Part shown: piece after piece, positions 7,983-25,618 of the stretch
Numbering within the stretch: the first letter of the stretch is position 1
Layout of the letters: every line of letters begins with the position of its first letter
Translations under genes and position numbers: made by a program
Assembly: GCA_037446635.1 (NCBI GenBank)
Contig: JBBIIG010000023.1
Span: forward strand, 782 to 34,822
DNA length: 34,041 bases
Direction of reading: 5' to 3'
Origin: a bacterium
GTDB taxonomy: Bacteria > Zhuqueibacterota > Zhuqueibacteria > Oceanimicrobiales > Oceanimicrobiaceae
The notes under the pieces: model-generated
Database searches by the model: none
Told to the model about the DNA's origin: nothing
Seen by the model: only the letters and a program-made list of their open reading frames with translations

Positions 7983-9270
7983 ACAGTATAAAAGTCTTTT
8001 TTGGATAATAGCGATCTTTCTTTTTGCTTATTATCTGCCCATCGGCGATGCCCGGTTTAACACGGCCATCTTGCAAGCCTTCGCATTGGTGAAGTGGTAC
8101 GCCCGCGAGCACGTCCTATTGTGTCTCGTGCCGGCGTTTTTTATTGCCGGCGTGATTTCGGTGTTTGTGAGCCAGGCGGCGGTCATCCAATATTTTGGCG
8201 CAGCGGCGAAAAAGTGGCTGGCCTACGCTGTGGCCTCGGTTTCGGGAACGATTCTGGCGGTATGTTCCTGCACCGTGCTGCCGTTGTTTTCCGGTATTCA
8301 CAAACGCGGCGCGGGACTCGGTCCGGCGATTGCGTTTCTTTATTCCGGACCAGCCATCAACATTTTGGCAATTATTTTGACGGCGCGAATTTTGGGACTG
8401 GAATTAGGGATCGCGCGGGTAGTAGGCGCGGTGCTGTTCAGCGTGCTGATTGGTCTGGCGATGCATCTCATCTATCGCAAAGAGAAATCGCAAAAAGCGG
8501 AGGCGCAACTGGCGATGCCGCAACCGGAGGAGACGCGCCCACTGTGGCAGACGGCGTTTCACTTTTTCGTGCTGGTGGCCATTCTGGTCTTTGCCAACTG
8601 GGGCCAGCCGCAGAGTGGTAACGGCGCCTGGAGCTTCATGTACGCCCACAAGTGGCAGGTAACGGCCATGCTCGGTATTCTGTTTGGCGTCTCGCTAATT
8701 AAGATTCTGAAGCTTGAGGCCTGGCATGTTGTCCTGGGCGCGATTCCGGTAATCCTCCTTGCACTCTTGTTTCCGGAAAATCCGCTGCTTTCCTTTTCCG
8801 CAGCTGTGATCGTTCTGAGTGTGCTGATTTCCATCACCCCCGGCGAGCCGCAGGATTGGATGGCCTCCACCTGGGGCTTTGCGAAACAGATTTTGCCGCT
8901 GCTGGCGGCCGGGGTTTTGGCCGCAGGTTTTTTGCTGGGCACGCCAGAGGGCGGCGTCGGCTTGATTCCCAATAAATGGATTGTCCGAATGGTGGGCGGC
9001 AACTCGCTGTTCGCCAATTTGTTTGCATCGGTGGCCGGCGCGTTCATGTATTTTGCCACGCTCACCGAAGTGCCGATTTTGCAGGGGTTGATCAACAGCG
9101 GCATGGGCAAAGGCCCGGCCCTGGCGCTGCTGCTGGCCGGCCCGGCGCTCTCACTGCCCAACATGCTGGTCATCCGCAGCGTGATTGGAACAGAGAAGAC
9201 GGTGGTCTATGTTTCGTTAGTGATTGTGATGGCCACCATCAGCGGATTGATTTTTGGGGCGATGTTCTAA
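7969..9270 (+). CDS. ArsP/DUF318-family permease
   Basis: VCSCTVLP, AFLYSGPAIN, YFATLTEVP and GPALSLP motifs; many TMs. Probable start is ATG 7969, overlapping the end of arsR. Confidence 0.9.
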   Translation: MNWREQYKSLFWIIAIFLFAYYLPIGDARFNTAILQAFALVKWYAREHVLLCLVPAFFIAGVISVFVSQAAVIQYFGAAAKKWLAYAVASVSGTILAVCSCTVLPLFSGIHKRGAGLGPAIAFLYSGPAINILAIILTARILGLELGIARVVGAVLFSVLIGLAMHLIYRKEKSQKAEAQLAMPQPEETRPLWQTAFHFFVLVAILVFANWGQPQSGNGAWSFMYAHKWQVTAMLGILFGVSLIKILKLEAWHVVLGAIPVILLALLFPENPLLSFSAAVIVLSVLISITPGEPQDWMASTWGFAKQILPLLAAGVLAAGFLLGTPEGGVGLIPNKWIVRMVGGNSLFANLFASVAGAFMYFATLTEVPILQGLINSGMGKGPALALLLAGPALSLPNMLVIRSVIGTEKTVVYVSLVIVMATISGLIFGAMF

Positions 9271-9280
9271 TTCTTGCGGA

Positions 9281-9399
9281 TGGAGTACTGGAGAACTGGA
9301 CTTGTGGAACGCTGGATTAATGGATTGATGGAAGAGTGAAGGACATCTTCATCGATCCATTGATCCAATACTCCAATACTCCAATACTCCATTAATCCT
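9281..9399. repeat. Inverted pair of degenerate 8-bp tandem arrays
   Basis: Seven TGGANNNN units from 9281, then six NNNNTCCA-type units from 9352, including ATACTCCA x3. Confidence 0.8.
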
Positions 9400-9435
9400 C
9401 GATGAGAAATCTCAAAACTGATTTAAGGAGGAACA

Positions 9436-9861
9436 ATGCAGAGAATACTAATTTTGTGTACCGGCAACTCCTGCCGCAGTCAAATGGCCGAGGGATTTTT
9501 GAAGTCATTCGATTCGAAATTGGAGGTCCATTCCGCGGGGACGAAGCCGGCTGAGCGGGTTCATCCCAAAGCAGTGGAGGTGATGAAGGAAGTGGGGATT
9601 GACCTTAGTGGCAATAAACCGAAAATGGTGGATCAATTTCTCGATCAGCCGTTCGATTACGTTATCACCGTGTGCGATCACGCGAAAGAGACGTGTCCGG
9701 TGTTCACCGGCAAAGTCAAGCAGCGGCTGCACATCGGTTTCGACGATCCCGCTGCGGCTACTGGAACGGAAGACGAAGTTTACGCCATTTTTCGCCGCGT
9801 GCGCGATGAGATTCGCGACAGCTTCCAAGAGTTTTATGAACAAATCAAACAAAAGGAGTAA
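9436..9861 (+). CDS. arsC: Thioredoxin-coupled arsenate reductase (LMW-PTP fold)
   Basis: P-loop CTGNSCRSQMAEG, resolving cysteines in TVCD...TCP, and FDDP. Confidence 0.93.
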   Translation: MQRILILCTGNSCRSQMAEGFLKSFDSKLEVHSAGTKPAERVHPKAVEVMKEVGIDLSGNKPKMVDQFLDQPFDYVITVCDHAKETCPVFTGKVKQRLHIGFDDPAAATGTEDEVYAIFRRVRDEIRDSFQEFYEQIKQKE

Positions 9862-9865
9862 TGAG

Positions 9866-10120
9866 ATGCTAAACATAAAAGTGGTGGGTCCCGGCTGTGG
9901 CAATTGCCAGCGACTGGAAGCCTTGTGCAAAGAAGTGGTAGCCGAAAACGGCATCGAGGCGCAAATCGAGAAGGTCACGGATTTCAGGCAGTTTGCGGAT
10001 CTGGGTATCCTCTGGACGCCGGGTCTGGTCATCAACGGTCAGGTCATGGCCAGCGGCAAGATTCCGGTCAAAAGTACGCTGGCGCACTGGATACAGGACG
10101 CCGTAAATGGTAAACGATAA
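9866..10120 (+). CDS. Small redox-active disulfide (thioredoxin-like) protein
   Basis: MLNIKVVGPGCGNC...TPGLVING...GKIP. True start is ATG 9866; the ORF track extends it upstream. Confidence 0.88.
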   Translation: MLNIKVVGPGCGNCQRLEALCKEVVAENGIEAQIEKVTDFRQFADLGILWTPGLVINGQVMASGKIPVKSTLAHWIQDAVNGKR

Positions 10121-10153
10121 CGCAATTATTCAACGAATAAAAAGGGTTTCAAA

Positions 10154-11262
10154 ATGGCAAGATTCAACAAGCGATAGAGAAGCTGCAAAATTTCAAGCTG
10201 CTGCCGCTTTTCGTCATCATCAGCATGGTGATCGGCATCGGCCTCGGCAAGCTCTACGGCATCTCGAACTTTGAGCTTACGCCGCCCATCGATGCCATCA
10301 TCGCGATTTTCAAAGGCACGTACACCTTCTCCCTGGCCAACTCGCTGGCGCTGGGCGTGGTCATCGGCTTGTTCTTGATGATGTACCCGGCCATGACCAA
10401 CATCAAATTCGAGGACCTCGGTCGCGCCGTCAAGTCGCCCAAGCAGCTCCTGGTGGTGCTGTTTTTCAACTTTGCGGTGGCGCCGTTCTGGATGCTGCTG
10501 TTGGCCAACTTTTTTCTCGAGCCCGGAAGCGATTTCCACACCGGCCTGGTGCTGTACGGCCTGGCGCCGTGCATCGCTATGGTGATCATTTTCACCTTCC
10601 TCTCTTTCGGTAACACGGCGATGGCGATTGTCCTGGTGGCGATGAACTCCATTCTGCAGATGATTCTGATTCCAGTCTATGCCCACTGGCTTCTGGGCGA
10701 AGTGAATTTTAATGTCTGGGTGGTGGCCGAGAGCGTGGTACTCTATCTCGGCCTGCCGCTGGTGGCCGGCTTTTTTACCCGGCGCTGGGGCGTGAAAAAG
10801 TACGGCGAGGAGGGCTTCAAGAAGGTCAAGACCTATCTCGACAGCCTGTCCATTATCGGTTTGCTGTTCACGCTGATCGTGATGTTCGCGCTCAAAGGCG
10901 ATTTAATCGTGGCGCAGCCCGGCATCATCCTGCAACTGGCCGTCCCGATGACCCTGTTTTTCTGGAGCATGTTCATCGTGGTCTATCTGTTTGGCTGGAA
11001 GCTGGGCTTCAACTACAAAGACGCCACCGCCGTGGCCTTCAACACCACCGGCCGCGATTTTGAAATCGCCATCGCCATTGCCATCACCGCCTTCAACCCC
11101 ACGGTCGCGCTGGCGACGGTGGTGGGCCCGCTCATCGAGGTACCGGTGATGCTGGTCTTGGTGTGGTTTGCTCGCGCCAGCCGACAGCGCTTATTTGCCG
11201 AGACCGCTGAAGCGGTTGAGATCGTACAGGCCACCGCGGCTCAAAGAAAGGAGGTAGCTTAA
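10154..11262 (+). CDS. acr3: Acr3-family arsenite efflux pump; apparent 1-nt frameshift just after the likely start
   Basis: MMYPAM, GLAPCIAMV, FEIAIAIAI and GPLIEVPVM motifs. The frame is open from 10141 and encodes TM1, but the ATG at 10154 is out of frame. The first in-frame ATG is 10225. Confidence 0.9.
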
Positions 11263-11264
11263 CC

Positions 11265-12158
11265 ATGTTCAGAAAAGTATTGTTTCCAACGGATTTTGGC
11301 GAATTTGCCGGCCACGTGCTCACCTGCCTGGGCGACCTGCGCAATGCGGGCCTGGAAGAGGTGGTGCTGCTGCATGTCATCGACGCCGATGAGCTCAACC
11401 AAAATCTTCTGGCTTCATTTTATAAAATCGACGAAGCCCGGTTGCGGGAGATTGCGCAGATCAAGCTGAAAGAATACCAGCAAACCCTGGAGAGCAAAGG
11501 CATTCGTGTCAAGGCGGAGATTGCCACCGGCATCCCCAGCAACAAAATCGTGCGAGTCGCAGAGGCCGAAGGTGTGTCCTTGATCATTGGCGGCACGCAG
11601 CGCCGCCGCGGCGAGGAGGAAGACAAGCTGGATACCACCACCGCGCGGGTGATCCGCAAAAGCAAGCTGCCGGTGCTGGTGATCAAACTCACCGAAGACG
11701 AGATGGCCCACCCGGCTGAGTGCGAGCGCTTTTGCGGCCGGCTGTTCAGCAAAGTGCTGTTCCCCACCGACTGGTCGGACTGCGCCAAAGCCACGCTGGC
11801 CGAGGTGAAAAAACTGCGCGGCGTCGCCCGGCAAATCCTGGTCGGCCACGTCATGGATGAACGGGTACTGAGACATCTCGATCCCAAAAAAATCGAGGAA
11901 TACCGCCAGAACGATTTAAGGCGACTGGACGAAGTTGAGAAGGAGCTGCGCGGCCTTGGCTTCGCGGTGGATACGCATCTGCACGTGGGGCATCCGGCCG
12001 CGGAAATCAACCGCATCGCCGACGAACAGGAGGCGTCGCTGGTGGTCATCGGCAAAAAAGGCAAGACCGGGCTGAAAGAGATCATCTGGGGCAGCACCTC
12101 GGAACACCTGGTGCGCCAGAGCAATCGCTCGGTTTTGGTATATTACTGTTGTGATTAA
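11265..12158 (+). CDS. Tandem-domain universal stress protein ending in Cys-Cys-Asp
   Basis: Two copies of KVLFPTD(F/W); second domain has GKKGKTG...WGSTSE. C-terminus YYCCD. Confidence 0.9.
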   Translation: MFRKVLFPTDFGEFAGHVLTCLGDLRNAGLEEVVLLHVIDADELNQNLLASFYKIDEARLREIAQIKLKEYQQTLESKGIRVKAEIATGIPSNKIVRVAEAEGVSLIIGGTQRRRGEEEDKLDTTTARVIRKSKLPVLVIKLTEDEMAHPAECERFCGRLFSKVLFPTDWSDCAKATLAEVKKLRGVARQILVGHVMDERVLRHLDPKKIEEYRQNDLRRLDEVEKELRGLGFAVDTHLHVGHPAAEINRIADEQEASLVVIGKKGKTGLKEIIWGSTSEHLVRQSNRSVLVYYCCD

Positions 12159-12179
12159 GAAAAATGGAGGTGTTTGGCC

Positions 12180-12533
12180 ATGAAGAAAGCAATTTTAATG
12201 TGCACGTGCAGCTTTGCCTGCCCGAGCATGAAGGACATCAATTTTGGCGAGCTTTCCGAACGCATTCGCCTGGAAATTCCGCACGACTACATGGCCCTGC
12301 ATCCGCGACTGTGTGAAGCGAACGGCGAAGAATTCATGAGCCGGATTTTGAAAGACGATTCGGTTTACATCACCCCGGCCTGTAAAGAAACCAATCAGAA
12401 GAAGCTGTTGCGCGATGCCTTCGAACGCGCCGGCGTGTCCATGGATGACCACTGGAAACCGGTGATGATGAGTTTCAAGAACACCGAGCAAGTTTTCGAA
12501 GAAGTCAAAAAGAAGGTCGAGGAGGTGGGGTAA
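12180..12533 (+). CDS. Small Cys-rich protein resembling the N-terminal domain of heterodisulfide reductase A
   Basis: CTC-x3-C ... HPRLC ... PAC ... RDAFERAG pattern. RBS GGAGG. Confidence 0.6.
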   Translation: MKKAILMCTCSFACPSMKDINFGELSERIRLEIPHDYMALHPRLCEANGEEFMSRILKDDSVYITPACKETNQKKLLRDAFERAGVSMDDHWKPVMMSFKNTEQVFEEVKKKVEEVG

Positions 12534-12534
12534 A

Positions 12535-12849
12535 ATGGCTGGCACTGGCTACATGGGAATTCCTCGCGAGGAAATCCCGTGGCACCCGACCATCGACCCT
12601 GACATGTGCACCGGCTGCGGCGAGTGCTTAGACTTCTGCGCCAACGACGTCTTCGAGCTAAACGAAGATGAGATGATCATGGCCGTGAAGAATCCCTACA
12701 ACTGCGTGGTCGGCTGCGACCGCTGCGCCGAGTTCTGCGCTACGGGCGCCCTGTCTTTTCCGAGCAAAGAGGATCTGGTCGCCACCCTCCGGGAGCTGCG
12801 GGTCAAATACGCCCAGGCGGCGGAAAAGGAAAGAGTTCAAAGTACTTAA
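12535..12849 (+). CDS. 2x[4Fe-4S] ferredoxin
   Basis: CTGCGECLDFC and CVVGCDRCAEFC. N-terminal PREEIPWHPTID. Confidence 0.9.
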   Translation: MAGTGYMGIPREEIPWHPTIDPDMCTGCGECLDFCANDVFELNEDEMIMAVKNPYNCVVGCDRCAEFCATGALSFPSKEDLVATLRELRVKYAQAAEKERVQST

Positions 12850-12850
12850 T

Positions 12851-13327
12851 ATGTATGAACGATTGGAGAAACAGGCCGCAGCATTACACCACCTCGTCGC
12901 CGAGCTGATGAAGAAATACCAGTTCCGCCACCGCCAAGAAATCTGCTGTCATGGCATCTCGATCACCCAGTATTACGCGCTGGCGGCACTTGGCGAGACC
13001 GGGAAATTGTCGATGGGCGAATTAGCCAGGCAGATGCGTCTGAACGTGAGCACGATGACGCGCATCGTCGATCAGCTTGTTGCCAAAAGCCTGGTGCATC
13101 GGTGGATGGATCCTCAAGATCACCGCGTCTGTGACGTGGCGCTCACCCAACAGGGACGGTCGCTGCTCGGGGAGATCACGGGCGAATTGCTGGAAACAGA
13201 GAAAGCGATTCTCTGTTGCATTCACCCCGAGGAGCGCGAGACATTGATCGTCGCTTTGAGAGAACTATCGAGAGCGGTGGATCAATGGCTGGCGCTCGCT
13301 CGACAAAAAGAAGGAGTAACCCCATGA
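12851..13327 (+). CDS. MarR-family regulator with vicinal cysteines
   Basis: MGELA...STMTRIVDQLVAKSLV...DHR...LTQQG; ICCHG and LCCIH. Confidence 0.88.
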   Translation: MYERLEKQAAALHHLVAELMKKYQFRHRQEICCHGISITQYYALAALGETGKLSMGELARQMRLNVSTMTRIVDQLVAKSLVHRWMDPQDHRVCDVALTQQGRSLLGEITGELLETEKAILCCIHPEERETLIVALRELSRAVDQWLALARQKEGVTP

Positions 13328-13533
13328 AGGCTGAACAATTCATTCACGAATTTGACGCGCTCTCGCCTGACGACAAGAAGCGCGTGCTGATGGCCATTGG
13401 CCCTGCCTTCTGCCGCGAGCTGATGAGCCATCCCGATCTAATCATGGAGATGCGAGGGTGGTGTCGAAACAATTTGACACCAGGTGAAATGCAGGACATA
13501 ATTGCGATGTTTCGCCGCAAAGCGGAGAAATAA
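13324..13533 (+). CDS. Small hypothetical protein (69 aa, two Cys)
   Basis: RBS AAGGAG, ATGA overlap with the MarR stop, and the ORF fills the operon gap. Confidence 0.65.
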   Translation: MKAEQFIHEFDALSPDDKKRVLMAIGPAFCRELMSHPDLIMEMRGWCRNNLTPGEMQDIIAMFRRKAEK

Positions 13534-13557
13534 TGCAATCAACTAAAGGAGTACAAA

Positions 13558-14925
13558 ATGGGAGTTGCGCAACCTGTTACGCATAAGAAAAGTCAGCGCG
13601 GAGGGGAACTTGTCAAAGCGCTGCTTTTCCGTAAGCCCAACCGGCGCGAGGTGGGATACCTTGCGTTGGTAGCGCTGTTCTACGCCCTGGGCGTGGGATA
13701 TGTCTATATCCACGATTTGTCCTTTCAATCGCTTTTTCTTTATGGACTGCTGCAGCCGCAAGGCGTCACCGGAGAGGCGGCGCGGCTCACCGAAATCGAT
13801 ACGCCGCTGTCGTGGAATCTTTTGCAGGTGGGCTGGTTTGTCCTGATCAAAGGCGCTGCGGTGCTGGTGGAGCTGTTCCAATACTGGGTGGTGGGCATGC
13901 TCATTGCTGGCGCGCTGGTGGTGTTTGTTTCCTAGACTAAAGTGAAACAAAAGATGGGCTACGGCGGCGTGAAGGCCAATTTCCTCGCCACCACCTCGGG
14001 CGCGATTATTCCCATCTGCTCCTGCGGCATCGTGCCGGTGCTGGCGGGCATGGTGGAAGCCGGCATTCCACTGGGCGCGACCATGGCCTTTCTCATCGCC
14101 GCGCCGATGTTGAATATCCCGACGGTGTTTATGACGGCCGGTGTGCTGGGGTGGAAAATGGCGATTGGCCGCATCATTGCCACCTTCGGCATTGCGCTGG
14201 CGGTCGGGCAGGTGCTGGCCTACTGGCAGCGCCAACACCGTGGACTGAAGCATTTTCTCAAAATCAAAGTCGCACCCAAACTCTCGCCCGAACTACAGCG
14301 GTTTGCCTTTCAAATCGGCATGAAGTTAGTCAACAATCCGGACGGCGCCAGCACCGCCGACATTGGCGCTCAGCACGAAAGCAAGCTTTTGCAGTTGGAG
14401 GAAGCGGGCTTGATTGAACGCAACCATCTTGGCAACTGGCAGCTTGTGGTGTCCGACGCCGAAGCGCCGCAAAACGCCTGTTTTGTGTTGCCCAGCGGCG
14501 ACATCAAGCGCCCCTTCGGCGAAAAAATTCGCGAGACCCTTCGCACCGCCTACGATTTCTTTCTGCAGCTCAACTACTATCTCATTCTGGCGGTGGTGAT
14601 TGCCGGCGCCATCAAAGTGCTGATTCCGACTTCGGTCATCGTCAATTTTGTCGGCGGGGAAAGTTTAAACTCAGTGCTGGTAGCCTCAGCCGTCGCGGTG
14701 CTGGCCTATGTTTGCACCTATGTGGAAGTGCCCACCGCGGTGGCGCTGATGGCCAAGGGCATGGGCGGCGGCGCTACGCTGGCCTATCTGCTGGGCGGCC
14801 CGGGGCTGTCGCTGCCTTCGATTGCCATGCTTTCGGGAGTTTTTAAAGCTCGAGTATTGGCGCTCTATGTTGGCGTCAGTTTTTTGGGATGCGTTGTCGC
14901 AGGTTACCTTTTTAATTTATTTTAG
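13558..14925 (+). pseudogene. Second ArsP/DUF318-family permease, interrupted by an in-frame TAG at 13933-13935
   Basis: ORFs 13558..13935 and 13942..14925 share a frame (VFVS*TKVKQKMG). PICSCG, AFLIAAP, YVCTYVEVP and GPGLSLP motifs. Confidence 0.8.
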
Positions 14926-14936
14926 GAGATAGAAGA

Positions 14937-15281
14937 ATGGCTGATCCAGAAGTAAGAATTTTTTCCATGCCGCAAGAGTTCCCGTGCGGGCCGGCCTCGG
15001 AGTGCTGCGGCCCCATCGGCCAGACTGAGGAAGAATTGCAAACGCTAAAGCAAGGACTTGAGCGAGAACTCGGCGTTCAGGTCCAAACCTTTAATGTCAA
15101 AAATGGTGCGGACATGAAGGAGCACCGCCAGATCCTGGCCTTGCTGCGATCTTTTGGCTGGGGCGTCTTGCCTATCATTGCGGTGGGCGATGAAGTGGTC
15201 AGCATGGGCGCCCCGCGCGTCGAAGATGCGGCGGCAGCCGTGCGCAATAAGCTGAATACTGTAATGATTAATTCAAAGTGA
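14937..15281 (+). CDS. ArsD-like arsenic metallochaperone / thioredoxin-fold protein
   Basis: N-terminal IF...CGPASECCGP Cys cluster and C-terminal LPIIAVGDEVVSMG, as in ArsD-type folds. Confidence 0.6.
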   Translation: MADPEVRIFSMPQEFPCGPASECCGPIGQTEEELQTLKQGLERELGVQVQTFNVKNGADMKEHRQILALLRSFGWGVLPIIAVGDEVVSMGAPRVEDAAAAVRNKLNTVMINSK

Positions 15282-15292
15282 GGAGATGAAAC

Positions 15293-15526
15293 ATGCCAAC
15301 CTACGAATTCGGCTGCATCGATTGTGGCGAAAAATTCGAGATTTTTGCTACAGTCAGTCAAAAGGAAAGCGGGCTGGATTTAACCTGCCCCAAATGCGGG
15401 GGGATGAAGGTCGCCCAGCTTTTTAACAGCATTAACTTTGTCAAATCCAACGCCGGCAGCGCCGACAAGGCTTTTCAAATGTCGGGCGGCTGCGGCCCCA
15501 ACGCCGGCCCCAACTGCTGCGGATGA
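15293..15526 (+). CDS. FmdB-family zinc-ribbon protein with a CCG tail
   Basis: MPTYEFGCIDCG...CPKCG; ends GGCGPNAGPNCCG. Confidence 0.88.
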   Translation: MPTYEFGCIDCGEKFEIFATVSQKESGLDLTCPKCGGMKVAQLFNSINFVKSNAGSADKAFQMSGGCGPNAGPNCCG

Positions 15527-15537
15527 AGGAGACAATC

Positions 15538-15939
15538 ATGGCAATACAAACTTCAGAAGGCGTGCTGACTAAGGAAGCTCTGCTCTCCGAAGCCGCCCAC
15601 CTCGGAAGCGCCGTGCGCGCTTCGAAAGTGTTTCAAGATTTTGTTACGGCACAGCACGCAGCCGACATCAGCGCTAAAGTACGACAAGCGCGCCAGCAGC
15701 TTTTCGAAGCCAGAGCGAGGGTGCAGAATGCAATGCAGAACCTGGGCGACGTAGCCAGCGCGGTTCACCACTTTCAGTCGGCGCAGGCTGAATTACAGTC
15801 GCTGCCGGAACTCAAAAAGCTCTTCGCCAGCCAGCAGGAGCTCTTAAGCCTGTTTGAATTCCTCGCCGCACAAATCAGCCAAGCGAGCGGGGTGGATTTT
15901 GTCGATGCCTGCCGGGTTTCAAGCGGCTGTTGCGGATAA
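15538..15939 (+). CDS. YlbF/YmcA-like helical protein with a CCG tail
   Basis: LGSAVRASKVFQDF...QISQASGVDF helical pattern; ends CRVSSGCCG. RBS AGGAG before ATG 15538. Confidence 0.65.
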   Translation: MAIQTSEGVLTKEALLSEAAHLGSAVRASKVFQDFVTAQHAADISAKVRQARQQLFEARARVQNAMQNLGDVASAVHHFQSAQAELQSLPELKKLFASQQELLSLFEFLAAQISQASGVDFVDACRVSSGCCG

Positions 15940-15956
15940 TTTTGAGGGTTAATGAT

Positions 15957-16289
15957 ATGGATTCCAAACTAAAATCAGAAATTGAAGGCTTTGCCGATGC
16001 GCTTCGGCAATCCGAGGCCGTTTACAATTACTTGAGTGCAAAGGCAGAAGTAGAAAGCGACGGTCAATATGCCGGATTTATAAACCAGATTGAGGGACAA
16101 GCTCCGGCTGGCGATGTAGCCGCGCTGAATGTGACCTGGCAGACGGTTGCCGACGCGCCACAATTGCGCGCCTATCTGCAGGCCAGACTTGCGCTGGTCA
16201 AGCTATTGCAGGAAATTAATGAGCAGATCAGTTCTGAGGTTGGTTTCAACATCGCTGCCAGTTTACAGCCCGCTTCGTGCTGCGGTTAA
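15957..16289 (+). CDS. Second YlbF/YmcA-like protein with a CCG tail
   Basis: FADALRQSEAVYNY...LLQEINEQISSEVGFN; ends ASCCG. Confidence 0.65.
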   Translation: MDSKLKSEIEGFADALRQSEAVYNYLSAKAEVESDGQYAGFINQIEGQAPAGDVAALNVTWQTVADAPQLRAYLQARLALVKLLQEINEQISSEVGFNIAASLQPASCCG

Positions 16290-16365
16290 AGATTTCCAAT
16301 TTGATGAGAGCAAAGTGAGCGCGTCAAGTGAAAAGGAATAAGTCAAAGGAATAAGGAGCAAGAAT

Positions 16366-16614
16366 ATGACTGTGAAAATCCTGGGCATCGGCTGCCCGAA
16401 ATGTAAAATCCTGGAAACCAAAGTTAAGGAAGTGGCCATGAAAAATGGCATCGGCTGCGAGATTGAAAAAGTCACTGACCTGTCGCAGATCATGAATTAC
16501 GGCGTGATGATGACGCCCGGTCTGGTCATCAACGAGCAGGTGAAGAGTGTCGGTGCCGTTCCCGGCGAAACGCAGATTCTGCAGTGGCTGCGGGAGGTGC
16601 AACATGCGCTCTAA
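16366..16614 (+). CDS. Small redox-active disulfide (thioredoxin-like) protein, paralogue of 9866..10120
   Basis: KILGIGCPKC...IEKVTD...YGVMMTPGLVINE. Confidence 0.9.
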   Translation: MTVKILGIGCPKCKILETKVKEVAMKNGIGCEIEKVTDLSQIMNYGVMMTPGLVINEQVKSVGAVPGETQILQWLREVQHAL

Positions 16615-17190
16615 AATTCTTGCACTGGTTTTCTTGATGTCCGCCGCGCTGCTGGTTTCCTGTGGGAGTGAGCAGACGCAAACAACCCGCGAGCAAGTTA
16701 AAACAGGCGGCCAGCTTACCGCAGATCAGAACCGAGAGCCAACCACCCGTGACGTTGGCGCTAATAGCGACCATCCCACCGGCAAACACGAGACGAACAG
16801 CCCGCGCCAACAACTCCCAAGAAAGTAGTCAGCGAGAAAAAAAATTCCGCACCCAAAATCACTTTTATTGAACTGGGCTCGGTCAATTGCATCCCCTGCA
16901 AGGCCATGCAGCCCGTGATGAAGTCCATCGAACAAAAATATGGCGAACAAATCCGAGTTGTCTTTTACGATGTCTGGACGCCCGAGCAGCAGAAGTACGC
17001 GCAACAGTTTGGCATTCGTCTGATTCCCACACAAGTCTTTCTCGACGCGAACGGTTCGGAAATCTTTCGCCACGAGGGCTTTTTTCCGGAAGCTGAGATT
17101 GATCAGTTTCTGCGGGCGCAGGGGTTGGCGGAAACCCTGCCTGCGCGGGCAGGCGATCCGCATCGCGGAAAAGCCCAGCAAGGATCGTGA
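16604..17190 (+). pseudogene. Thioredoxin-domain lipoprotein, frameshifted between 16768 and 16828
   Basis: Lipoprotein signal MRSKIL...LLVSC in one frame (stop at 16828). KITFIELGSVNCIPCKAM...IPTQVF thioredoxin domain in the -1 frame, with no start of its own before the CxxC. Confidence 0.8.
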
Positions 17191-17199
17191 GGCGCTCAA

Positions 17200-17904
17200 A
17201 TGATTTCGGAAACGTTTAGCGTTTTGAGTCAGGCTCTCGGCGATGCCTTTGGCGTTGCTCTGCTGGCGGCGCTGGCCTGGGGCGTGCTGAGTATATTGTT
17301 GAGTCCCTGCCATCTTTCCAGCATCCCACTGATCATCGGCTACATCAGTACCCAGGGAACGGTCACTGCGCGGCGTTCCTTCAATCTGTCCGCCGTCTTC
17401 GCTTTGGGCGTACTGGTGACCATCGCCTTTATTGGAATCATCACAGCCTCGCTGGGACGGTTAATGGGAGATGTTGGCGCGGCTGGCAACCTGCTGGTGG
17501 CAGGCATATTTGTGATCATCGGTCTGTACTTGATGGACCTCTTGCGATTGAATTGGAGCGGTGTACGTATGCAGCAGACTCGCTTGCGCGGTGCGGCCGG
17601 TGCGCTGACACTGGGACTGCTGTTCGGCATCGGACTCGGGCCGTGCACCTTTGCCTACATGGCGCCCGTGCTGGGTACGGTGTTTCACCTTTCGCAGACC
17701 AGCGTGGTCAAAGCCAATTCACTGCTGCTGGCGTTTGGCCTGGGTCACGTGGGAGTGATCGTGGGCGCCGGATCGTTGGGCAACTGGGTGCAGCGCTACC
17801 TCAACTGGACCGGCAGCTCAAAAGCGATGGTGCGGGTGAAGCGTGTCTGCGGCGGGCTGGTGCTGCTGGGCGGGGTGTATTTAATTTTCACGACCTTGTC
17901 ATAA
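17200..17904 (+). CDS. ccdA: CcdA/DsbD-beta transmembrane electron transporter
   Basis: LSPCHL and LGPCTF redox cysteines; about 6 TMs. Confidence 0.88.
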   Translation: MISETFSVLSQALGDAFGVALLAALAWGVLSILLSPCHLSSIPLIIGYISTQGTVTARRSFNLSAVFALGVLVTIAFIGIITASLGRLMGDVGAAGNLLVAGIFVIIGLYLMDLLRLNWSGVRMQQTRLRGAAGALTLGLLFGIGLGPCTFAYMAPVLGTVFHLSQTSVVKANSLLLAFGLGHVGVIVGAGSLGNWVQRYLNWTGSSKAMVRVKRVCGGLVLLGGVYLIFTTLS

Positions 17905-17907
17905 AGA

Positions 17908-17940
17908 AACCTTGTCAGGGTTCGGAACCCTGACAGGGTT
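17908..17940. repeat. REP-like palindrome, with a partial second copy at 3744-3756
   Basis: AACCTTGTCAGGGTT-cgg-AACCCTGACAGGGTT. AACCCTGTCAGGG also occurs at 3744. Confidence 0.7.
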
Positions 17941-17957
17941 AAGCCGGACGAATTGAA

Positions 17958-18362
17958 ATGAGAGCAAATACTACGCAAAAAACCGTGAAACTATTTAAGG
18001 CGCTGGCCGACGAAAACCGGGTGCGCATTTTAAAGATGCTCGAGACGCGGGGGCTGTACGTCTGCGAAATTACGGAGACGCTGCGCCTGGCGCTTTCCAC
18101 GGTTTCCAAGCATTTGTCTATTTTGCGCGATGCCGGCTTCATTGTGGACGAAAAGGAGGGCCGCTGGGTGCGCTGTCGTCTCAACCGCGAACCCGACGAT
18201 CCATGCGTACAAGAACTGCTTCGCATGGTGGCTCGCTGGCTTCCAACCGACGAAACGGACACGGTTGAGTTGGCGCGCGTTCTCGCCTGCCGCACAGAGC
18301 GGCGCTGTCAGAGTGAAAACTTACTCGTGGAAATGTTGGATGATCCGTTCACCTTATCGTGA
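17958..18362 (+). CDS. arsR: Second ArsR/SmtB-family repressor
   Basis: FKALADENRVRILKML, LYVCEI and STVSKHLSILRDAG. Clear paralogue of 7614..7982. Confidence 0.88.
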   Translation: MRANTTQKTVKLFKALADENRVRILKMLETRGLYVCEITETLRLALSTVSKHLSILRDAGFIVDEKEGRWVRCRLNREPDDPCVQELLRMVARWLPTDETDTVELARVLACRTERRCQSENLLVEMLDDPFTLS

Positions 18363-19169: not shown

Positions 19170-19311
19170 ATGGTTCCAATCATGACTGCTCAAGAAATTC
19201 TTCAAACCAAAAAAGTATTTGCCCTGATCGGCGCGACGTCGGATAGGTGGAAATGCGGCTACCAGGTGCTGGCCACTTTGATCGAGACCGGCTACACCGT
19301 TCTGCCGATCA
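19170..19311 (+). pseudogene. CoA-binding protein (YccU-like), N-terminal fragment
   Basis: ILQTKKVFALIGAT...KCGYQVLATLIETGYTVLPI; similarity stops abruptly where 'PINP' is expected. Confidence 0.75.
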
Positions 19312-19741: not shown

Positions 19742-20857
19742 ATGTCTCAAACTTTGACACGTAAAGAATTCATCACCAGTGCGGCAAAGTATGCAGCGGG
19801 CATTTCGGCGGGCGTCGCAGGACTCAGCTTGCTTTCACCGGAAAAAACCAAAGCGACGGTTCAGCAATACACTTGGCCGTGGCCCTATCAGAAACTCGAT
19901 CCGGAACATGTGCGCGTGTTGGGGCACGATAGCTTTTGGGAAAAAGCCTGCTCGTATGCGGCGTTCAAAGGCATCATTCATGCTCTGGCCGAGACGGTTG
20001 GCGAGCCCTTCACGTTGATGCCGCCGGAAATCATGATTTTCGGGCACGGCGGCGGCGCGGGTTGGGGAACCCTCTGCGGCGCGTTGAATGGCGCTTCGGC
20101 GGCCATCTGTTTGGTCACCGACAAAGAAACGTCCGACAAGCTCATCAACGAGCTGATTGGCTGGTACACGCAGACGGAATTTCCCACCGACAAGAGCAAC
20201 GAGTATGCAGTGAATCATGTTTTTGTGGACCAGCGTTATGATCAGGCGCTCCCTCAGAGCCTGTGCGGATCACCGCTCTGTCATGCCTCGGTCACAGAGT
20301 GGTGCATCGCCTCAGGCTTCAAAGTGTCGGATACCGAACGCAAAGAGCGCTGCGCCAGACTCGCTGGTGATGTCGCGGCTTATGCCGTCGAGTTGCTGAA
20401 CCAACATTTTGACAGCGTGTTCACGCCCATCTACGTCCCGCCAGAATCCATTGCGGCCTGCATGAGTTGTCACGGCGCGAGTTTTCAAAATAATGTTGCC
20501 GCGAAGATGGAGTGCATGCAATGTCACGGCGATCCGCATGCGACGACTGCTGTTGAAGAGATGCCAGGCGTGCCCGCTTCGTTCAGCCTGGAGCAAAACT
20601 ACCCCAATCCGTTTAATCCGGGAACGAGCATTCAATTCTCGGTGGCCAACGCCGAAAAGGTTGATCTCGCGATTTATGATATTCGAGGTCGCTTGGTGCG
20701 CACATTGGTGGATCACGAATTGTATTCACCGGGGCAGTACACCCTGAGTTGGGACGGCACGGACAACCACGGGCGGCGAGTCGCCAGCGGCGTTTACTTC
20801 ACCAAGATGCAAGCGGGAAAATTTGTTGCCACACGCAAAATGTCGATGGTGAAGTAA
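19742..20857 (+). CDS. Split-Soret cytochrome c-like protein (C-GCAxxG-C-C family, two CxxCH) fused to a T9SS/FlgD-type C-terminal domain
   Basis: Tat-like LTRKEFI signal; GWGTLCGALNG, SPLCHASV, ERKERC; CMSCH and CMQCH; then FSLEQNYPNPFNP...IYDIRGRLV...WDG...SGVYF...RKM. Confidence 0.82.
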   Translation: MSQTLTRKEFITSAAKYAAGISAGVAGLSLLSPEKTKATVQQYTWPWPYQKLDPEHVRVLGHDSFWEKACSYAAFKGIIHALAETVGEPFTLMPPEIMIFGHGGGAGWGTLCGALNGASAAICLVTDKETSDKLINELIGWYTQTEFPTDKSNEYAVNHVFVDQRYDQALPQSLCGSPLCHASVTEWCIASGFKVSDTERKERCARLAGDVAAYAVELLNQHFDSVFTPIYVPPESIAACMSCHGASFQNNVAAKMECMQCHGDPHATTAVEEMPGVPASFSLEQNYPNPFNPGTSIQFSVANAEKVDLAIYDIRGRLVRTLVDHELYSPGQYTLSWDGTDNHGRRVASGVYFTKMQAGKFVATRKMSMVK

Positions 20858-21261
20858 ATTTTAAACCGGCTGCCCGATTTAATCAAAACAACTTGTATGA
20901 TGAATCGGGCGTCCTGATCAATTCCGTCTTCAACTTTGCGAGATGATGGTTCAATCCGGGCGCCTGAATTTCCAGAATTATTCGCGGCGCCCGGATTTCA
21001 TTTCCCACTAACCATGAATTCCCACAATTGAGAATTGCGGAGGATAACATTCTCAGGTGTGGGAATTTGTTTTTGAAGCTCAGAACTTTTCGCAACCTCT
21101 ATAAATACTGTAGAATCTATGCATAGCTGAAGGCACAGAACCCCTCAGTATTTGTGGCATTTCTTTTGATCCTCAGCAATCCAATTTAACATTCCATCCC
21201 CATTTAGGAATTGACGACTTTCCTTTAATCTTTTGGATTTAAATTCTAAGGAGCAAAAATT

Positions 21262-22164
21262 ATGGCTCAAGAACAAAAGTCCAATTTAACCCGCAGGGCA
21301 TTTTTCAAACTGACGAGCAGCGCCGCCGCGGGGTTGGCGGCGGTAACGGCGTTGCTTGCCAGTTCCCGGAAATCACGGCCGGTGGGCCCGCCTTATTCCA
21401 TTACGGAATTTAACGGCGTCAGCGAAACCGTGCGCATGCACAACGACCTGCAGCGCGCGCTTGCCAAAAAGCCGGAAGAGCGGCGCTGGGCGATGGTCAT
21501 CGACACGCGGCGCTGTATCGGCTGCAACGCCTGCACCGCGGCTTGCATCGCCGAAAACAATCTGCCGCCGGGGGTGATGTATCGCACCGTGCCGGAAATC
21601 GAAAGCGGCGAATTTCCCGACGTGCAGCGTCACTTCATGCCTACCAACTGCATGCAGTGCGACAACGCGCCGTGCATCGAGGCCGCCAACAAAATCATTC
21701 CCGGCGCCATGTTCAAACGGCCCGATGGCATCGTCGAAATTGACTACACCAAAATGAGAGGCCGCGAAGTTTTCGAGGCCGCCAAGAGCGCCTGCCCCTA
21801 CACCGCGCTTTATTTTGATGAAGGGAAAAATTACACCGATGGCACGCCGGCGGTGCAGCCGTATGAAAAACGCAGCGTCAACGAATATGACAAAACCTGG
21901 ACGCGCCTGCAAACCGCTGGTTCGACGCGCAAATGCCATTTCTGCACGCAGCGCCTCGCGGCCGGACAACTGCCGGCGTGTGTCGCCACCTGCACCGGAC
22001 TGGCAATGCACTTCGGCGATTTGAACGATCCCGAAAGTCTCGTGGCGCAAATGATGCAATCGAATCGCCTCATGCGGCTGGAAGAAAGTCAGGGCACGGA
22101 GCCGCGGGTGTTTTATTTAGCGGCTCAGCCGGAGGAAAGCTGCATGACGTGCCATTCATTTTAA
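21262..22164 (+). CDS. TtrB/NrfC/DmsB-family Fe-S subunit with a Tat signal, three clusters and a C-terminal CxxCH
   Basis: LTRRAFFK; WAMVID..CIGCNACTAAC; CMQCDNAPC; ACPY; KCHFC..PACVATC; FGDLNDP; GTEPRVFY; CMTCH. Confidence 0.9.
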   Translation: MAQEQKSNLTRRAFFKLTSSAAAGLAAVTALLASSRKSRPVGPPYSITEFNGVSETVRMHNDLQRALAKKPEERRWAMVIDTRRCIGCNACTAACIAENNLPPGVMYRTVPEIESGEFPDVQRHFMPTNCMQCDNAPCIEAANKIIPGAMFKRPDGIVEIDYTKMRGREVFEAAKSACPYTALYFDEGKNYTDGTPAVQPYEKRSVNEYDKTWTRLQTAGSTRKCHFCTQRLAAGQLPACVATCTGLAMHFGDLNDPESLVAQMMQSNRLMRLEESQGTEPRVFYLAAQPEESCMTCHSF

Positions 22165-22256: not shown

Positions 22257-25200
22257 ATGAAACCCAAAATAGATCAACCCAACGGCCAATCCCGTCGCGA
22301 ATTTTTGAAAACCTCGGCGCTGCTCGGCGGCAGCGCCGCGTTCCTTTCGCAAGCAGTGTGGTGCGAAAAACTGTTTGCCGCCGCCGAAGCAGGAATGCTC
22401 TCCGCTGCCGACACCTACGATCTGGCCAAACCGGAAAACATGCTGCAAACGGTTTGCTTGCAGTGCAACACCGGCTGCGGCATTCGCGTGAAGCTGATGA
22501 ACGGCGTCGCGGTGAAAATCGACGGCAATCCCTACAACCCGTGGACATTGGTGCCGCCCATCGATTACAAGACGCCACTCGCCGACTCAGCTAAACTCGA
22601 AGGCGCGCTTTGCCCGAAAGGCCAATCCGGCGTGCAGACGCTCTACGATCCGTATCGCATTGTCAAAATCTTGAAGCGCGCCGGTAAGCGCGGCGAAAAT
22701 CGCTGGGTGAGCATCTCGTTCGAGCAGGCCGTCAATGAAATCGTCAACGGCGGTTTGCTCTTCAAAAACGTCAAAGGCGAAGAGAATCGCCGCGTCACCG
22801 GCTTGAAAGAATTGTGGGCGCTGCGTGATCCGAAGCTCGCAGCCGACATGGGCAAAGCCATCGACGAGATTCGTCACAAAAAAACGCCGGAAGAAAAGAA
22901 AGCGGCAGTGGAGGAATTCAAAAAGAAATTTGCCGCACATCTCCATTTGCTCATCGACCCCGAGCATCCCGATCTCGGCCCGAAGAACAATCAGGTGAGT
23001 TTCGTTTGGGGCCGCGTCAAAGCCGGCCGCTCGGAGTTCATCAAGCGCTTCATCAGCGAATCGTTCGGCTCCACCAATGCGCATGGCCACACGACTGTCT
23101 GCCAAGGCTCGCTCTATTTCACCGGCAAGGCGATGAGCGATCAATTCGTCGAAGGCAAATTTTCCGGCGGCCAAAAATTTTACTGGCAGGCGGATACCAG
23201 CAACGTGGATTTTCTCCTGGCTATCGGCTCGTCGTACCTCGAAGGCGGCTACGGCCCGACGCATCACGCGCGCAAGCTCATGCAACGCCTCGTCGAAGGC
23301 AAGGTCAAAATCGCCGTGGTCGATCCGCGCTTCTCGAAGATTGCAGCGAAGGCTTACAAATGGGTGCCGGCCAAGCCCGGCTCCGAAGCCGCGCTGGCGC
23401 TCGGCATGATGCGCTGGATCATCGAGCAAAAAAGATTCGATGAAAAATTTCTCAGCGCCGCCAACAAAGCCGCGGCCAAAGCTGCGGGCGAGCAATCGTG
23501 GACCAACGCCGCGTGGCTGGTGAAGGAAGACGGCGCGTTCCTGCGCGCCTCGGAAATCGGTTTGGCGCCAAAAGAAAAGCGGCAAACGAAAGACGGCAAA
23601 GAGTGGGAATTCGATCCGTTCGTCATTCTTGCCAAAGGCCAACCGCTCGCGTTCGATCCGAATGATGAGAAGAATGCGGCCGCCGGCGACGTGCTGGTCA
23701 ACACCACCGTTGGCGGCATCAAAGTGAAAAGCAGTCTGCAAATCATCTATGAATCCGCCGCTTCAAAGACGATTGAAGAGTGGGCGGAAGTCTGCGGCAT
23801 CTCTGCGGATGACATTGTTGAGCTGGCGCGCGAATTCACCTCGCACGGCAAGCGCGCGGTGGCGGATCCGCATCGTGGCGTCTCGCAACACACCAATGGT
23901 TTTTACAACGTGCTCGCGGTTTATTGTTTGAATGCGCTTATCGGCAATTGGGATTGGAAGGGCGGACTCATCAAAGCTTCCACCTACAACATTCTCGGCG
24001 AGAAGGAAGGCCAGCCGTTCGCGCTCGGCAAAATGCATCCGGCGAAGCTCAAGCCGTTCGGTCTCAGCATTATTCGCCACGATGCGAAATACGAAGAGTC
24101 CACGATTTTCTCCGGCTATCCGGCCAGGCGCAACTGGTATCCGTTCTCCAGCGATGTGTATCAGGAAATCATTCCTTCCATTGGCGATGCTTATCCTTAC
24201 CCAACGAAAGTGCTGTTCACGTACATGGCAGCGCCGACCTATTCACTTCCCGGCGGACAAACCAACATCGAGATTCTCAGCGATCCCAACAAGATTCCGC
24301 TGGTGATTGCCTCGGACATCACCATCGGCGAAACCTCGATGTATGCCGATTATATTTTTCCGGATTTGACGTATTTGGAGCGCTGGGAATTTCACGGCAG
24401 CCATCCGAGCATTCCGCAAAAGGTGCAGCCGGTGCGCAACCCGGCAGCCGCGCCGGTGACAGAGTCCGTGACCGTGTTTGGCGAGAAACTGCCGATTTCT
24501 CTCGAAAGCATGATTCTCGCGATTGCGGAGAAAATGGGCTTGCCCGGTTTCGGGCCGAACGGCTTAGGTGAAAATCAAGCGTTGGTTCGTCCCGAAGATT
24601 TTTATTTGAAGATGGTGGCGAACATTGCCGCGGGCGACAAGCCCGGCGACGCGGTGCCCGATGCCGATGACGCGGAGCTGCAACTCTTTCTCGATGCGCG
24701 CCGTCATTTGCCGCCAACGGTTTTCGATCCGGTGAAATGGCAGCAAGCGGTTGGCGAGGCAAATTGGAAGAAAGTCGTGTACGTGCTCAATCGCGGCGGC
24801 CGTTATCAGGATTATGAGAAAGCGTACGACGGCGAAAAGTTTGCTAACAAGTATGGCCAGCTTATCAATGTGTATTTGGAAAAATATGCGAAGGCCAAAT
24901 CGCCGATGACCGGAAAGAAGCTTTTCGGCTATCCGGTTTATCAGCCGGTGATGGATGTATTGGGCCGCGAGATTCACGACGAGCAGGAAGGCTTTGATTT
25001 GAATCTCATCACCTACCGCGTGGTGACGCAAACCAAATCACGCACGGTTGCCGATTATTGGCTCAACGCCATTCAACCCACAAATGAAATTCTCCTCAAC
25101 AGCCAGGATGCCAGTCGCCTCGGTTTAAGCGAGGGCGATAAAGTGAAGATCGTTTCGAAGTCGAACCCCGACGGCATGTGGGATTTGAAGAACGGCACGT

Positions 25201-25469
25201 TCAAGCCGATGATTGGCGAGGTGAAAGTCATCGAAGGCATTCGTCCCGGCGTGATTGCGTTTTCGCTCGGCAAGGGCCACTGGGCTTATGGCTCATCGGA
25301 TGTGCGCATCGATGGCAAGATCGTCAAAGGCGATGCCCGGCGCGCCACCGGCATTCACGCCAACGCCGCGATGCGGTTGGATGATCATTTGAAGAACACG
25401 TGTTTGATCGACCCGGTGGGCGGCAGTGTGAGTTTTTATGATACGAGGGTGAGGGTGGTGAAGATTTGA
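22257..25469 (+). CDS. Mo/W-bisPGD oxidoreductase catalytic subunit, tetrathionate reductase (TtrA/SrdA)-like clade
   Basis: RBS GGAGGT, Tat SRREFLK, FS0 motif CLQCNTGC...CPKG, YDPYR, HGHTTVCQG (Cys Mo ligand), ADYIFPD and a C-terminal molybdopterin-dinucleotide domain; 1070 aa. Confidence 0.88.
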   Translation: MKPKIDQPNGQSRREFLKTSALLGGSAAFLSQAVWCEKLFAAAEAGMLSAADTYDLAKPENMLQTVCLQCNTGCGIRVKLMNGVAVKIDGNPYNPWTLVPPIDYKTPLADSAKLEGALCPKGQSGVQTLYDPYRIVKILKRAGKRGENRWVSISFEQAVNEIVNGGLLFKNVKGEENRRVTGLKELWALRDPKLAADMGKAIDEIRHKKTPEEKKAAVEEFKKKFAAHLHLLIDPEHPDLGPKNNQVSFVWGRVKAGRSEFIKRFISESFGSTNAHGHTTVCQGSLYFTGKAMSDQFVEGKFSGGQKFYWQADTSNVDFLLAIGSSYLEGGYGPTHHARKLMQRLVEGKVKIAVVDPRFSKIAAKAYKWVPAKPGSEAALALGMMRWIIEQKRFDEKFLSAANKAAAKAAGEQSWTNAAWLVKEDGAFLRASEIGLAPKEKRQTKDGKEWEFDPFVILAKGQPLAFDPNDEKNAAAGDVLVNTTVGGIKVKSSLQIIYESAASKTIEEWAEVCGISADDIVELAREFTSHGKRAVADPHRGVSQHTNGFYNVLAVYCLNALIGNWDWKGGLIKASTYNILGEKEGQPFALGKMHPAKLKPFGLSIIRHDAKYEESTIFSGYPARRNWYPFSSDVYQEIIPSIGDAYPYPTKVLFTYMAAPTYSLPGGQTNIEILSDPNKIPLVIASDITIGETSMYADYIFPDLTYLERWEFHGSHPSIPQKVQPVRNPAAAPVTESVTVFGEKLPISLESMILAIAEKMGLPGFGPNGLGENQALVRPEDFYLKMVANIAAGDKPGDAVPDADDAELQLFLDARRHLPPTVFDPVKWQQAVGEANWKKVVYVLNRGGRYQDYEKAYDGEKFANKYGQLINVYLEKYAKAKSPMTGKKLFGYPVYQPVMDVLGREIHDEQEGFDLNLITYRVVTQTKSRTVADYWLNAIQPTNEILLNSQDASRLGLSEGDKVKIVSKSNPDGMWDLKNGTFKPMIGEVKVIEGIRPGVIAFSLGKGHWAYGSSDVRIDGKIVKGDARRATGIHANAAMRLDDHLKNTCLIDPVGGSVSFYDTRVRVVKI

Positions 25470-25591
25470 TATTTTGAAGATGTAATACTTACCGTGCTGA
25501 AAATTTGTCGTCGGTGGCTCAGCGCCAGAACGCGAGGGGTCGTTTCAAACCCGTTTTCTGATTGAGTTCGGAAGTTGAACTGAGGCATTAA

Positions 25592-25618
25592 GCCCCCGGA
25601 TTTTTCCGGGGGTTTTTT
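25592..25618 (+). terminator. Intrinsic terminator after the molybdoenzyme operon
   Basis: GCCCCCGGA-tttt-TCCGGGGG followed by TTTTTT. Confidence 0.8.

Follow-up and report, generated by a model that had tools for sequence, protein, structure and literature searches.

A TtrB-like iron-sulfur subunit with the ligands of three clusters and a C-terminal CxxCH tail in a bacterium of the Zhuqueibacterota

Introduction

Enzymes of the iron-sulfur molybdoenzyme family are described as assemblies of three modules, a catalytic subunit A, a four-cluster iron-sulfur subunit B and a membrane subunit C, and in enzymes with NarH-, DmsB- or PsrB-type subunits the cluster FS4 is the one that adjoins the membrane subunit. 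The question raised by the locus described here is how a Ttr-like enzyme would receive its electrons when the FS4 ligands and the gene for the membrane subunit are both missing. The locus lies in a window of 34,041 nucleotides, by which we mean the whole stretch of DNA analysed (assembly GCA_037446635.1, contig JBBIIG010000023.1, positions 782 to 34,822). The quinone site of PsrC is close to a PsrB cluster (PMC8076601), and TtrB is defined by four [4Fe-4S] clusters and 16 cysteines (PMC12949373, section 3.3), against 12 ligands in the protein encoded here.

Results and discussion

The iron-sulfur subunit

The gene of the iron-sulfur subunit, B, shows the following features:

21262..22164, + strand: B, a TtrB-like Fe-S subunit of 300 aa, three-cluster and CxxCH-tailed by translation, alignment and structural model
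21289..21306, + strand: twin-arginine motif TRRAFF in the Tat signal of B, read from the sequence, with TatC encoded in the genome
21514..21546, + strand: Cys group I, complete (C85, C88, C91, C95) by translation and alignment
21637..21639, + strand: Met126, conserved in the clade and a speculative candidate for sixth haem ligand
21649..21687, + strand: Cys group II, with C130, C133 and C138 present and Ala142 at the position of the fourth Cys
21754..21795, + strand: Cys group III, with only C178 left and Met165, Phe171 and Ala174 in the region of the first three
21934..21993, + strand: Cys group IV, complete (C225, C228, C240, C244)
22141..22155, + strand: C294-x-x-C297-H298 at the C-terminus, by its motif a likely haem-c attachment site

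The initial annotation had described groups I and IV as complete, group II as lacking its fourth Cys and group III its first three, so that 12 ligands would remain ahead of a terminal CMTCHSF. Our translation agrees with this description, with the complete groups at residues 85/88/91/95 and 225/228/240/244 and 12 cluster ligands followed by C294-M-T-C297-H298-S-F and the stop codon, and the alignment to PsrB (2vpw_B) and ArrB (6cz7_B) places the four absences as described. Only the extent of the gene had to be corrected, given that the stretch 21505..22164 then reported covers residues 82-300, while the open reading frame begins at 21262 and includes TRRAFF. The Cys that closes group II in the four-cluster sisters is Ala142 in B, and the group III region carries a 3-residue insertion besides the loss of its first three Cys. 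From what is known of NarH, DmsB and PsrB, we take the four missing Cys to be the ligands of FS4.

An AlphaFold model of B (pLDDT 86 overall, 64 in the tail of about 14 residues) retains the expected fold, as a fold search matched it to PsrB (Z 23.5, rmsd 1.9, 189 aligned) and ArrB (Z 23.0, rmsd 2.2, 207 aligned), and also to 2ivf_B and 4ydd_B. The model places a helical turn immediately ahead of the CxxCH, and no cytochrome Pfam match that would indicate a cytochrome domain around the motif was obtained in B. A CxxCH within the last 12 residues is found in 6 of the 5571 open reading frames of at least 150 aa in the same genome, which is 97% complete.

Conservation of the redesign

The loss of FS4 and the terminal motif are shared by the relatives of B. 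A CxxCH within the last 25 residues is present in 118 of 119 homologues, the remaining one (P0057) having CxxxCH, and the FS4 motif is present in none of them. Since this search and a second homologue search used queries that contain the tail, which biases their counts, a control search was run with residues 73-287 alone against 1.84 billion representatives. Among its 150 matches the tail motif occurs in four, all without any FS4 Cys, and in none of the 133 representatives having some or all FS4 Cys; six others lack both the FS4 Cys and the motif, and seven were unreadable. Four of those six (P0150, P0158, P0190 and P0193) belong to unrelated lineages and, together with the beta subunit of pyrogallol-phloroglucinol transhydroxylase (4v4c_B), which has no haem, they indicate that the loss of FS4 alone does not require a haem.

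In a pooled, de-duplicated set made of the locus proteins, the 119 homologues and 15 hand-picked representatives, the terminal motif is found in 169 of 175 FS4-less sequences and in 0 of 33 four-cluster sequences. Conservation of the CxxCH among FS4-less homologues, which the initial annotation had set beforehand as a test of its reading, is thus borne out. The six exceptions are L059 at the end of a contig, L044 with what is probably a frameshift, the CxxxCH of P0057 and three degenerate tails (L038, L040 and P0122), in which FS4 and an intact CxxCH are both absent. Degenerate tails keep the His (CKSQH, IAGFH, CARWH, CADQH). Across 101 alignment rows the CxxCH is invariant, and over the clade, which spans divergence to about 50% identity, C294 is conserved at 98%, C297 at 97% and H298 at 99%, while 50 different pairs occupy the two middle positions, the flanks vary in length and sequence, and the linker from the last strand to the motif has a 17-residue spread. 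Two Cys and a His kept at 97-99%, variable flanks and a His retained even in degenerate tails are, as far as sequences can tell, the behaviour of a haem tag.

The positions of the old FS4 ligands are also conserved in the clade, as Ala142 (93%), Met, Phe or Leu at 165, Phe171 (87%) and Ala174 (88%), and no gain of a fourth conserved Cys, His or Asp was found in B across the clade alignment. A vacated site filled by conserved hydrophobic residues points to an old redesign. In this regard, decay or a sequencing artefact, in which a broken ttrB would have acquired a CxxCH by chance, could draw on the fact that another gene of the neighbouring arsenic island is broken (the in-frame TAG of the second arsP); it is refuted by a pattern present in 118 of 119 homologues, by the intact A gene and by the conserved replacement residues, and its probability is negligible. 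The long-standing redesign proposed in the initial annotation is therefore upheld by the homologues, by the filled pocket and by the co-variation given below.

Named clade members are metagenome-assembled genomes of Armatimonadetes, Ignavibacteriales, Bacteroidota and Planctomycetaceae, with no cultured host seen among them. A scan of genome contigs gave one locus from 30 stretches, and 364 matches in plasmid records were all below 60% identity, with no clade member by score among the 15 listed. In two members (L056:7995-8771 and L063:156-932) the second group I Cys is replaced by Asp or Glu-Leu (CVGDHAC, CIGELAC), which suggests a changed FS1 ligand.

Operon and phylogeny

The surroundings of B contain:

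22257..25469, + strand: A, a TtrA-like Mo-bisPGD catalytic subunit of 1070 aa, with its ATG after a GGAGG site
25590..25615, + strand: terminator-like hairpin and T-run directly 3' of A
21089..21116, + strand: weak sigma70-like promoter match 5' of B (7 matches against 3.6 expected)
19742..20857, + strand: split-Soret cytochrome c homologue (match to 1h21_A, E 2.5e-34)
7614..18362, + strand: arsenic-resistance island, by Pfam and profile matches

A starts 92 bases 3' of B, in the gene order B-A, and carries a Tat signal (SRREFL), the FS0 motif CLQCNTGC and the Cys motif HTTVC. The terminator-like hairpin that follows A defines the transcription unit as ttrBA without ttrC, the next gene encoding a PPDK-domain protein. 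The layout is alike in the closest named relative (L001, Ca. Zhuqueibacter), which is 86% identical. The best NCBIfam match of A is TtrA (NF011567, 518 bits where the cut-off is 1750), and B scores 133 against 416 with NF011569, so both subunits stay far below the cut-offs of the TtrBCA families.

After removal of 10 duplicates, 92 loci gave 82 distinct B sequences, 60 of them FS4-less and 22 four-cluster. The FS4-less loci have a terminal CxxCH in 56 cases, A directly after B in all 48 with readable downstream DNA, and an NrfD gene in none of the 60 stretches fetched, in which 12 contigs end within 600 bases. In contrast, the four-cluster sisters have no CxxCH, and NrfD is next to B in 20, called by Pfam for 4 and by our own profile for the remainder, the other two being at a contig end. 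Close sisters fused to NrfD keep FS4 in 11 of 11 cases, and none has the tail; a fusion of FS4-less B to a cytochrome was absent from 20 longer proteins, which is a weak negative. The co-variation of FS4 loss, terminal CxxCH and NrfD absence, raised in the initial annotation as a check, is thus observed over the 82 distinct sequences.

In the B tree, all FS4-less proteins group in a single clade, which lies within the four-cluster TtrB-like sisters (SH-aLRT 100), with a support of 97 after removal of the trait columns and of 93/99 in a careful tree built from thinned rows (37 of 92 and 22 of 37). The redesign of B arose once, and the loss of FS4 with the gain of CxxCH therefore counts as a single evolutionary observation. 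The A tree (36 selected rows) is different in that the B types interleave, with at least five changes, and one clade of four-cluster-linked A is rejected by the AU test (p 1e-94); on this tree NrfD presence tracks the B type in five of five independent pairs (p 0.0625), partly because the B and C genes lie side by side and are transferred as a pair. This interleaving indicates that four-cluster B with C, and three-cluster CxxCH B, are alternative input modules which A has repeatedly swapped. No swap among the loci examined produced an FS4-less B with NrfD. Proteins of a separate lineage (P0507-P0512) present a DmsB-type Fe-S domain, with a partial FS4 Cys set (CRGTGAC), fused to a membrane domain and to a cytochrome c domain of class I.

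Probable haem attachment

Judged from its motif, the tail of B probably carries a covalent c-type haem. The genome encodes CcmE, three Cytochrom_C_asm genes and TatC, and 24 of its open reading frames have at least three CxxCH; cytochrome c assembly genes are also present in both of the other clade-bearing genomes tested. A Tat pattern together with a CxxCH is restricted in this genome to B and the adjoining split-Soret homologue. Split-Soret cytochromes c (1h21) share with B a predicted Tat signal and C-terminal CxxCH motifs (PMC4429474, PMC3623810), so Tat export with haem c has a precedent. The initial annotation had called a covalent haem on a Tat substrate unusual; the combination is rare, but the split-Soret cytochromes are a precedent. 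Split-Soret cytochrome c differs from B in its unrelated fold and its two haems, and we know of no molybdoenzyme partner for it.

The Ccm system normally acts on unfolded Sec substrates. Among 45 assessable FS4-less B genes, 16 lack a twin-arginine motif that is nonetheless present on the A beside them; 14 of these start no more than about 20 residues ahead of the first conserved helix and two look damaged. In such members haem would have to be added to the folded complex after export, and an exposed terminal tag would make attachment at that stage plausible. The signal-less members also speak most strongly for a metal site other than haem, where the CxxCH would bind Zn, or an Fe-S centre in replacement of FS4, acquired in the cytoplasm ahead of export, or would cap the vacated FS4 face. 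This avoids attaching haem to a folded protein, and it agrees with the missing cytochrome fold and the lack of a clear sixth ligand in B. We regard it as unlikely, though, in view of four points: B gained no fourth conserved Cys, His or Asp; Ala, Phe and Met occupy the old FS4 pocket; the His is better kept than the second Cys; and the spread in spacing suits a tethered tag over a buried metal site.

Position 126, four residues before an FS3 ligand, is Met (90%) or Lys (9%) in the clade and Leu, Ile or Thr in the sisters. Both Met and Lys are able to ligate haem, and it is tempting to speculate, from this conservation, that Met126 or Lys is the sixth haem ligand, although Met126 may only cover FS3. 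Met249 is likewise clade-specific. It was set aside together with Met150, because by analogy with the ferredoxin fold they would lie against FS1 and in the former pocket of FS4; Met59, Met78 and His226 were discarded for being common to the four-cluster sisters. A search for residues of A that track the B type (44 against 9 rows) gave six weak positions and no convincing His or Met ligand.

Proposed electron route

Taken together, we lean towards a model in which the FS4-less B, through its predicted haem-c tail, feeds a periplasmic and probably arsenate-reducing enzyme from cytochromes. If the haem is there, it very likely lies in the electron path, and it may occupy the former site of FS4. 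A and B would take up their Mo and Fe-S cofactors and fold in the cytoplasm, then be exported by Tat, as the motifs seen on both suggest, and the Ccm system would then add haem to the short exposed tail. Oxidation of quinol would take place at another site, in alternative complex III or a cytochrome b/multihaem c module, and electrons would pass from a cytochrome to the tail haem and along FS3, FS2, FS1 and FS0 to Mo. The haem-tailed B would thus take the place of four-cluster B plus NrfD as an interchangeable input module, a function that we propose on top of the observed swapping.

A bolder form of this model can be advanced tentatively, at somewhat less than even chances. Here, the folded Mo/Fe-S heterodimer would be exported by Tat and then receive haem on a natural C-terminal tag, even with a signal-less B, the haem would replace both FS4 and NrfD, and the resulting adaptor would repeatedly rewire Ttr-like reductases. 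The haem would perhaps be capped by Met126 or Lys beside FS3.

In one subclade (L025, L034/L035, L037 and L048, four distinct loci) B-A is directly preceded by genes for a 7-haem cytochrome c and for a cytochrome b, which shows a cytochrome module in the place of NrfD; the pair may resemble Geobacter CbcBA. A multihaem or split-Soret gene is nearby in only 7 of the 27 FS4-less loci of at least 8 kb, so a dedicated donor is not conserved, and in none of the four four-cluster loci of that length.

The split-Soret homologue of the window has an RK-type Tat-like signal, two CxxCH and an FlgD/T9SS-like C-terminal domain. As a dedicated donor it has low odds, since such a gene adjoins B only in the window and in L013/L014 and is not found before B in L001, and a hairpin and the promoter-like site stand between it and B. 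It is probably a transcription unit apart from B-A, and is at best a weak candidate for electron donor. Its combination of a Tat-like signal with an FlgD/T9SS-like domain (19742-20857) is an odd mix of export tags, and an 8-haem cytochrome of L001 (1152-2612) has a tail resembling that domain. A 50-kb cluster elsewhere in the genome (G000:C20:5860-55535) holds 14 multihaem cytochrome reading frames (3-14 motifs), an Fe-S protein and an NrfD-like gene, and is a candidate extracellular electron transfer locus and a possible donor network.

Three NrfD genes over the cut-off lie away from the operon in the same genome, and one may be used in trans. In this regard, FS3 could be fed directly by a protein partner or by an NrfD encoded elsewhere, leaving to the CxxCH, be it with haem, as a disulfide or as an As(III)-binding dithiol, an accessory or regulatory role. 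Such direct feeding resembles Shewanella ArrAB, which lacks an anchor and is fed by CymA with no haem in B (PMC2500031), and it agrees with the haem-less three-cluster B proteins (4v4c_B and the four unrelated lineages), with three natural members without an intact motif and with the further NrfD genes. It is nevertheless improbable, given that the motif is present in nearly all FS4-less proteins (169/175) and was gained exactly on the branch of FS4 loss, and that a dithiol would not need a conserved His.

Probable substrate

Arsenate is, with fair confidence, the substrate, which the enzyme would reduce as As(V). The island upstream includes two ArsR, two ArsP, an LMW-PTP ArsC, Acr3, an ArsD-like protein, thioredoxins and a DsbD/CcdA membrane domain, and ars-type genes accompany 15 of the 27 FS4-less loci of at least 8 kb (13 if ArsR is excluded) and one of the four four-cluster loci of that length, the ArsA and ArsD labels of this survey being read from sequence without Pfam. 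Ttr-like As(V) reductases have been described (PMC12949373, PMC5492636, PMC3534657, PMC11462812, PMC13608581, PMC10100899), and this precedent together with the ars context makes arsenate reduction the most likely activity. A carries WGR and HGHTTVCQGSLY motifs in common with NrfD-linked relatives; its GR pair precedes the Mo-ligand loop, a GR motif having been presented as a mark of arsenic-binding enzymes (PMC12949373; Fig. 2B legend), and HTTVC aligns with the Cys loop HSSVC of ArrA. A deeper A branch with GRIEHG-type motifs, which also pairs with haem-tailed B, may act on other substrates.

The opposite direction, in which the tail haem c would be a high-potential exit and the enzyme would oxidise arsenite or a sulfur compound, has a low probability in our view. 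If the sixth ligand were Met126 or Lys, a high potential would be probable, going by the behaviour of His/Met haems. ArrX/PhnD-type sensor genes occur near several loci, and Arr and Arx have been described as bidirectional in vitro (PMC13685797). Closely related A subunits that share the WGR and HGHTTVCQGSLY motifs pair, however, with either input module, and both the NrfD-linked Ttr enzymes (PMC8076601) and the described Ttr-like arsenic enzymes (PMC12949373) are reductases, the former quinol-fed. Oxidation with the haem as exit is therefore considered unlikely, and cytochrome-fed arsenate reduction is retained as the working model.

Relation to known enzymes

The profiles and motifs place the operon in the lineage of TtrA, SrdA and alternative arsenate reductases, as TtrA is the closest family, the Mo ligand is a Cys and B precedes A. 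With Salmonella TtrBCA/SrdBCA it has in common B before A, Tat motifs on A and B, TtrA as best match and the Cys Mo-ligand motif, but it differs in the absence of TtrC/NrfD, the three clusters, the terminal CxxCH and the arsenic context. The Ttr-like arsenate reductases of Anaeromyxobacter PSR-1, Melioribacter roseus, Pyrobaculum and Limisphaera likewise have a TtrA-type subunit, encoded beside ars and arrTSR-type genes (PMC5492636, PMC12949373, PMC13608581); unlike the two-gene B-A unit, those of M. roseus and Limisphaera are described as complexes of three genes.

Shewanella ANA-3 ArrAB (6cz7) is a soluble periplasmic AB dimer without an anchor, linked to quinol by a c-type cytochrome (PMC2500031), an arrangement like the one proposed here. 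The B fold is the same, but ArrB has four clusters and no CxxCH tail, the gene order is AB instead of BA, and both subunits are far from the Arr profiles (A 132 bits against 1600; B 126 against 450).

The EbdABC, SerABC and PcrABC enzymes are soluble periplasmic Mo/Fe-S enzymes whose wire ends distally in a haem, borne by a separate subunit, through which electrons are exchanged with cytochromes, and they keep FS4 as [3Fe-4S]. The exchange through a terminal haem is as proposed here, and their B folds match (2ivf_B, 4ydd_B). Nonetheless, FS4 is absent in our B, the motif is on its own tail and A has a Cys rather than an Asp ligand. The type II DMSO reductases, with a B of about 330 aa and a haem gamma subunit, are distant by profile (TIGR03478, 82 against 481; TIGR03479, 93 against 985), and the B-A operon has no gamma gene.

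Transhydroxylase 4v4c_B lacks the four matching Cys and is the precedent for a three-cluster B, but it is cytoplasmic, with a Ser-ligated A (PMC10100899). Moreover, it has no haem motif at the aligned position, and its FS4 loss is independent. FS4 loss without haem and Tat export with haem c thus each have a precedent. No description of their combination in a three-cluster CxxCH-tailed TtrB was found in the literature searched, which did not extend to the PSR-1 paper, and the excerpts of PMC13685797, PMC7509429 and PMC9386147 contain nothing on such a B. Measured in this analysis were the swapping of modules seen in the A tree, the members without a signal, the fusions to NrfD and the Met or Lys that is a candidate ligand.

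A B subunit with its own haem, if true, would be a further route linking molybdoenzymes to the respiratory chain. The haem-tailed three-cluster B appears common among Ttr-like enzymes, which in a study of paddy soil were more transcribed than arrA (PMC11462812). Where ttrAB stood at the end of a contig and ttrC was lacking, this has been read as a possible gap (PMC8528874); the present clade shows that ttrC can be absent from a metagenome-assembled genome by design and not through an assembly gap. The haem-tailed B is also a small system, provided by nature, in which to ask if a Tat substrate that has already folded can receive haem from Ccm. Were the adaptor proposal correct, one gene would turn quinol-fed Ttr-like reductases into cytochrome-fed ones, repeatedly, and uncultured bacteria of the subsurface would have arsenate respiration wired into their multihaem networks.

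Other features of the island and its counterparts

A porin-like gene with a weak phosphate-porin Pfam match stands beside ttrBA in nine loci, 5' of B in L001, L003, L004, L010, L011, L017, L021 and L022 and after A in L031, and could encode an arsenate entry channel. In the window, the 455-codon frame of the second ArsP permease (13558-14925, + strand) is interrupted by one in-frame TAG (13933-13935), which is probably due to an assembly error or a nonsense mutation. An open reading frame with a CoA-binding domain at the island edge (19170-19520, + strand) matches Pfam positions 1-51 of 116 and continues into unrelated sequence, and looks like a truncated or chimeric remnant. Within the island, two tandem YlbF/Com-family proteins (15523-16289, + strand) show weak halo-CC-star HcsL matches and end in CCG, possibly as As(III)-binding tails. 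Finally, the DsbD/CcdA membrane domain (17200-17904, + strand) adjoins the thioredoxins and could serve arsenic detoxification or keep the CxxCH thiols reduced.
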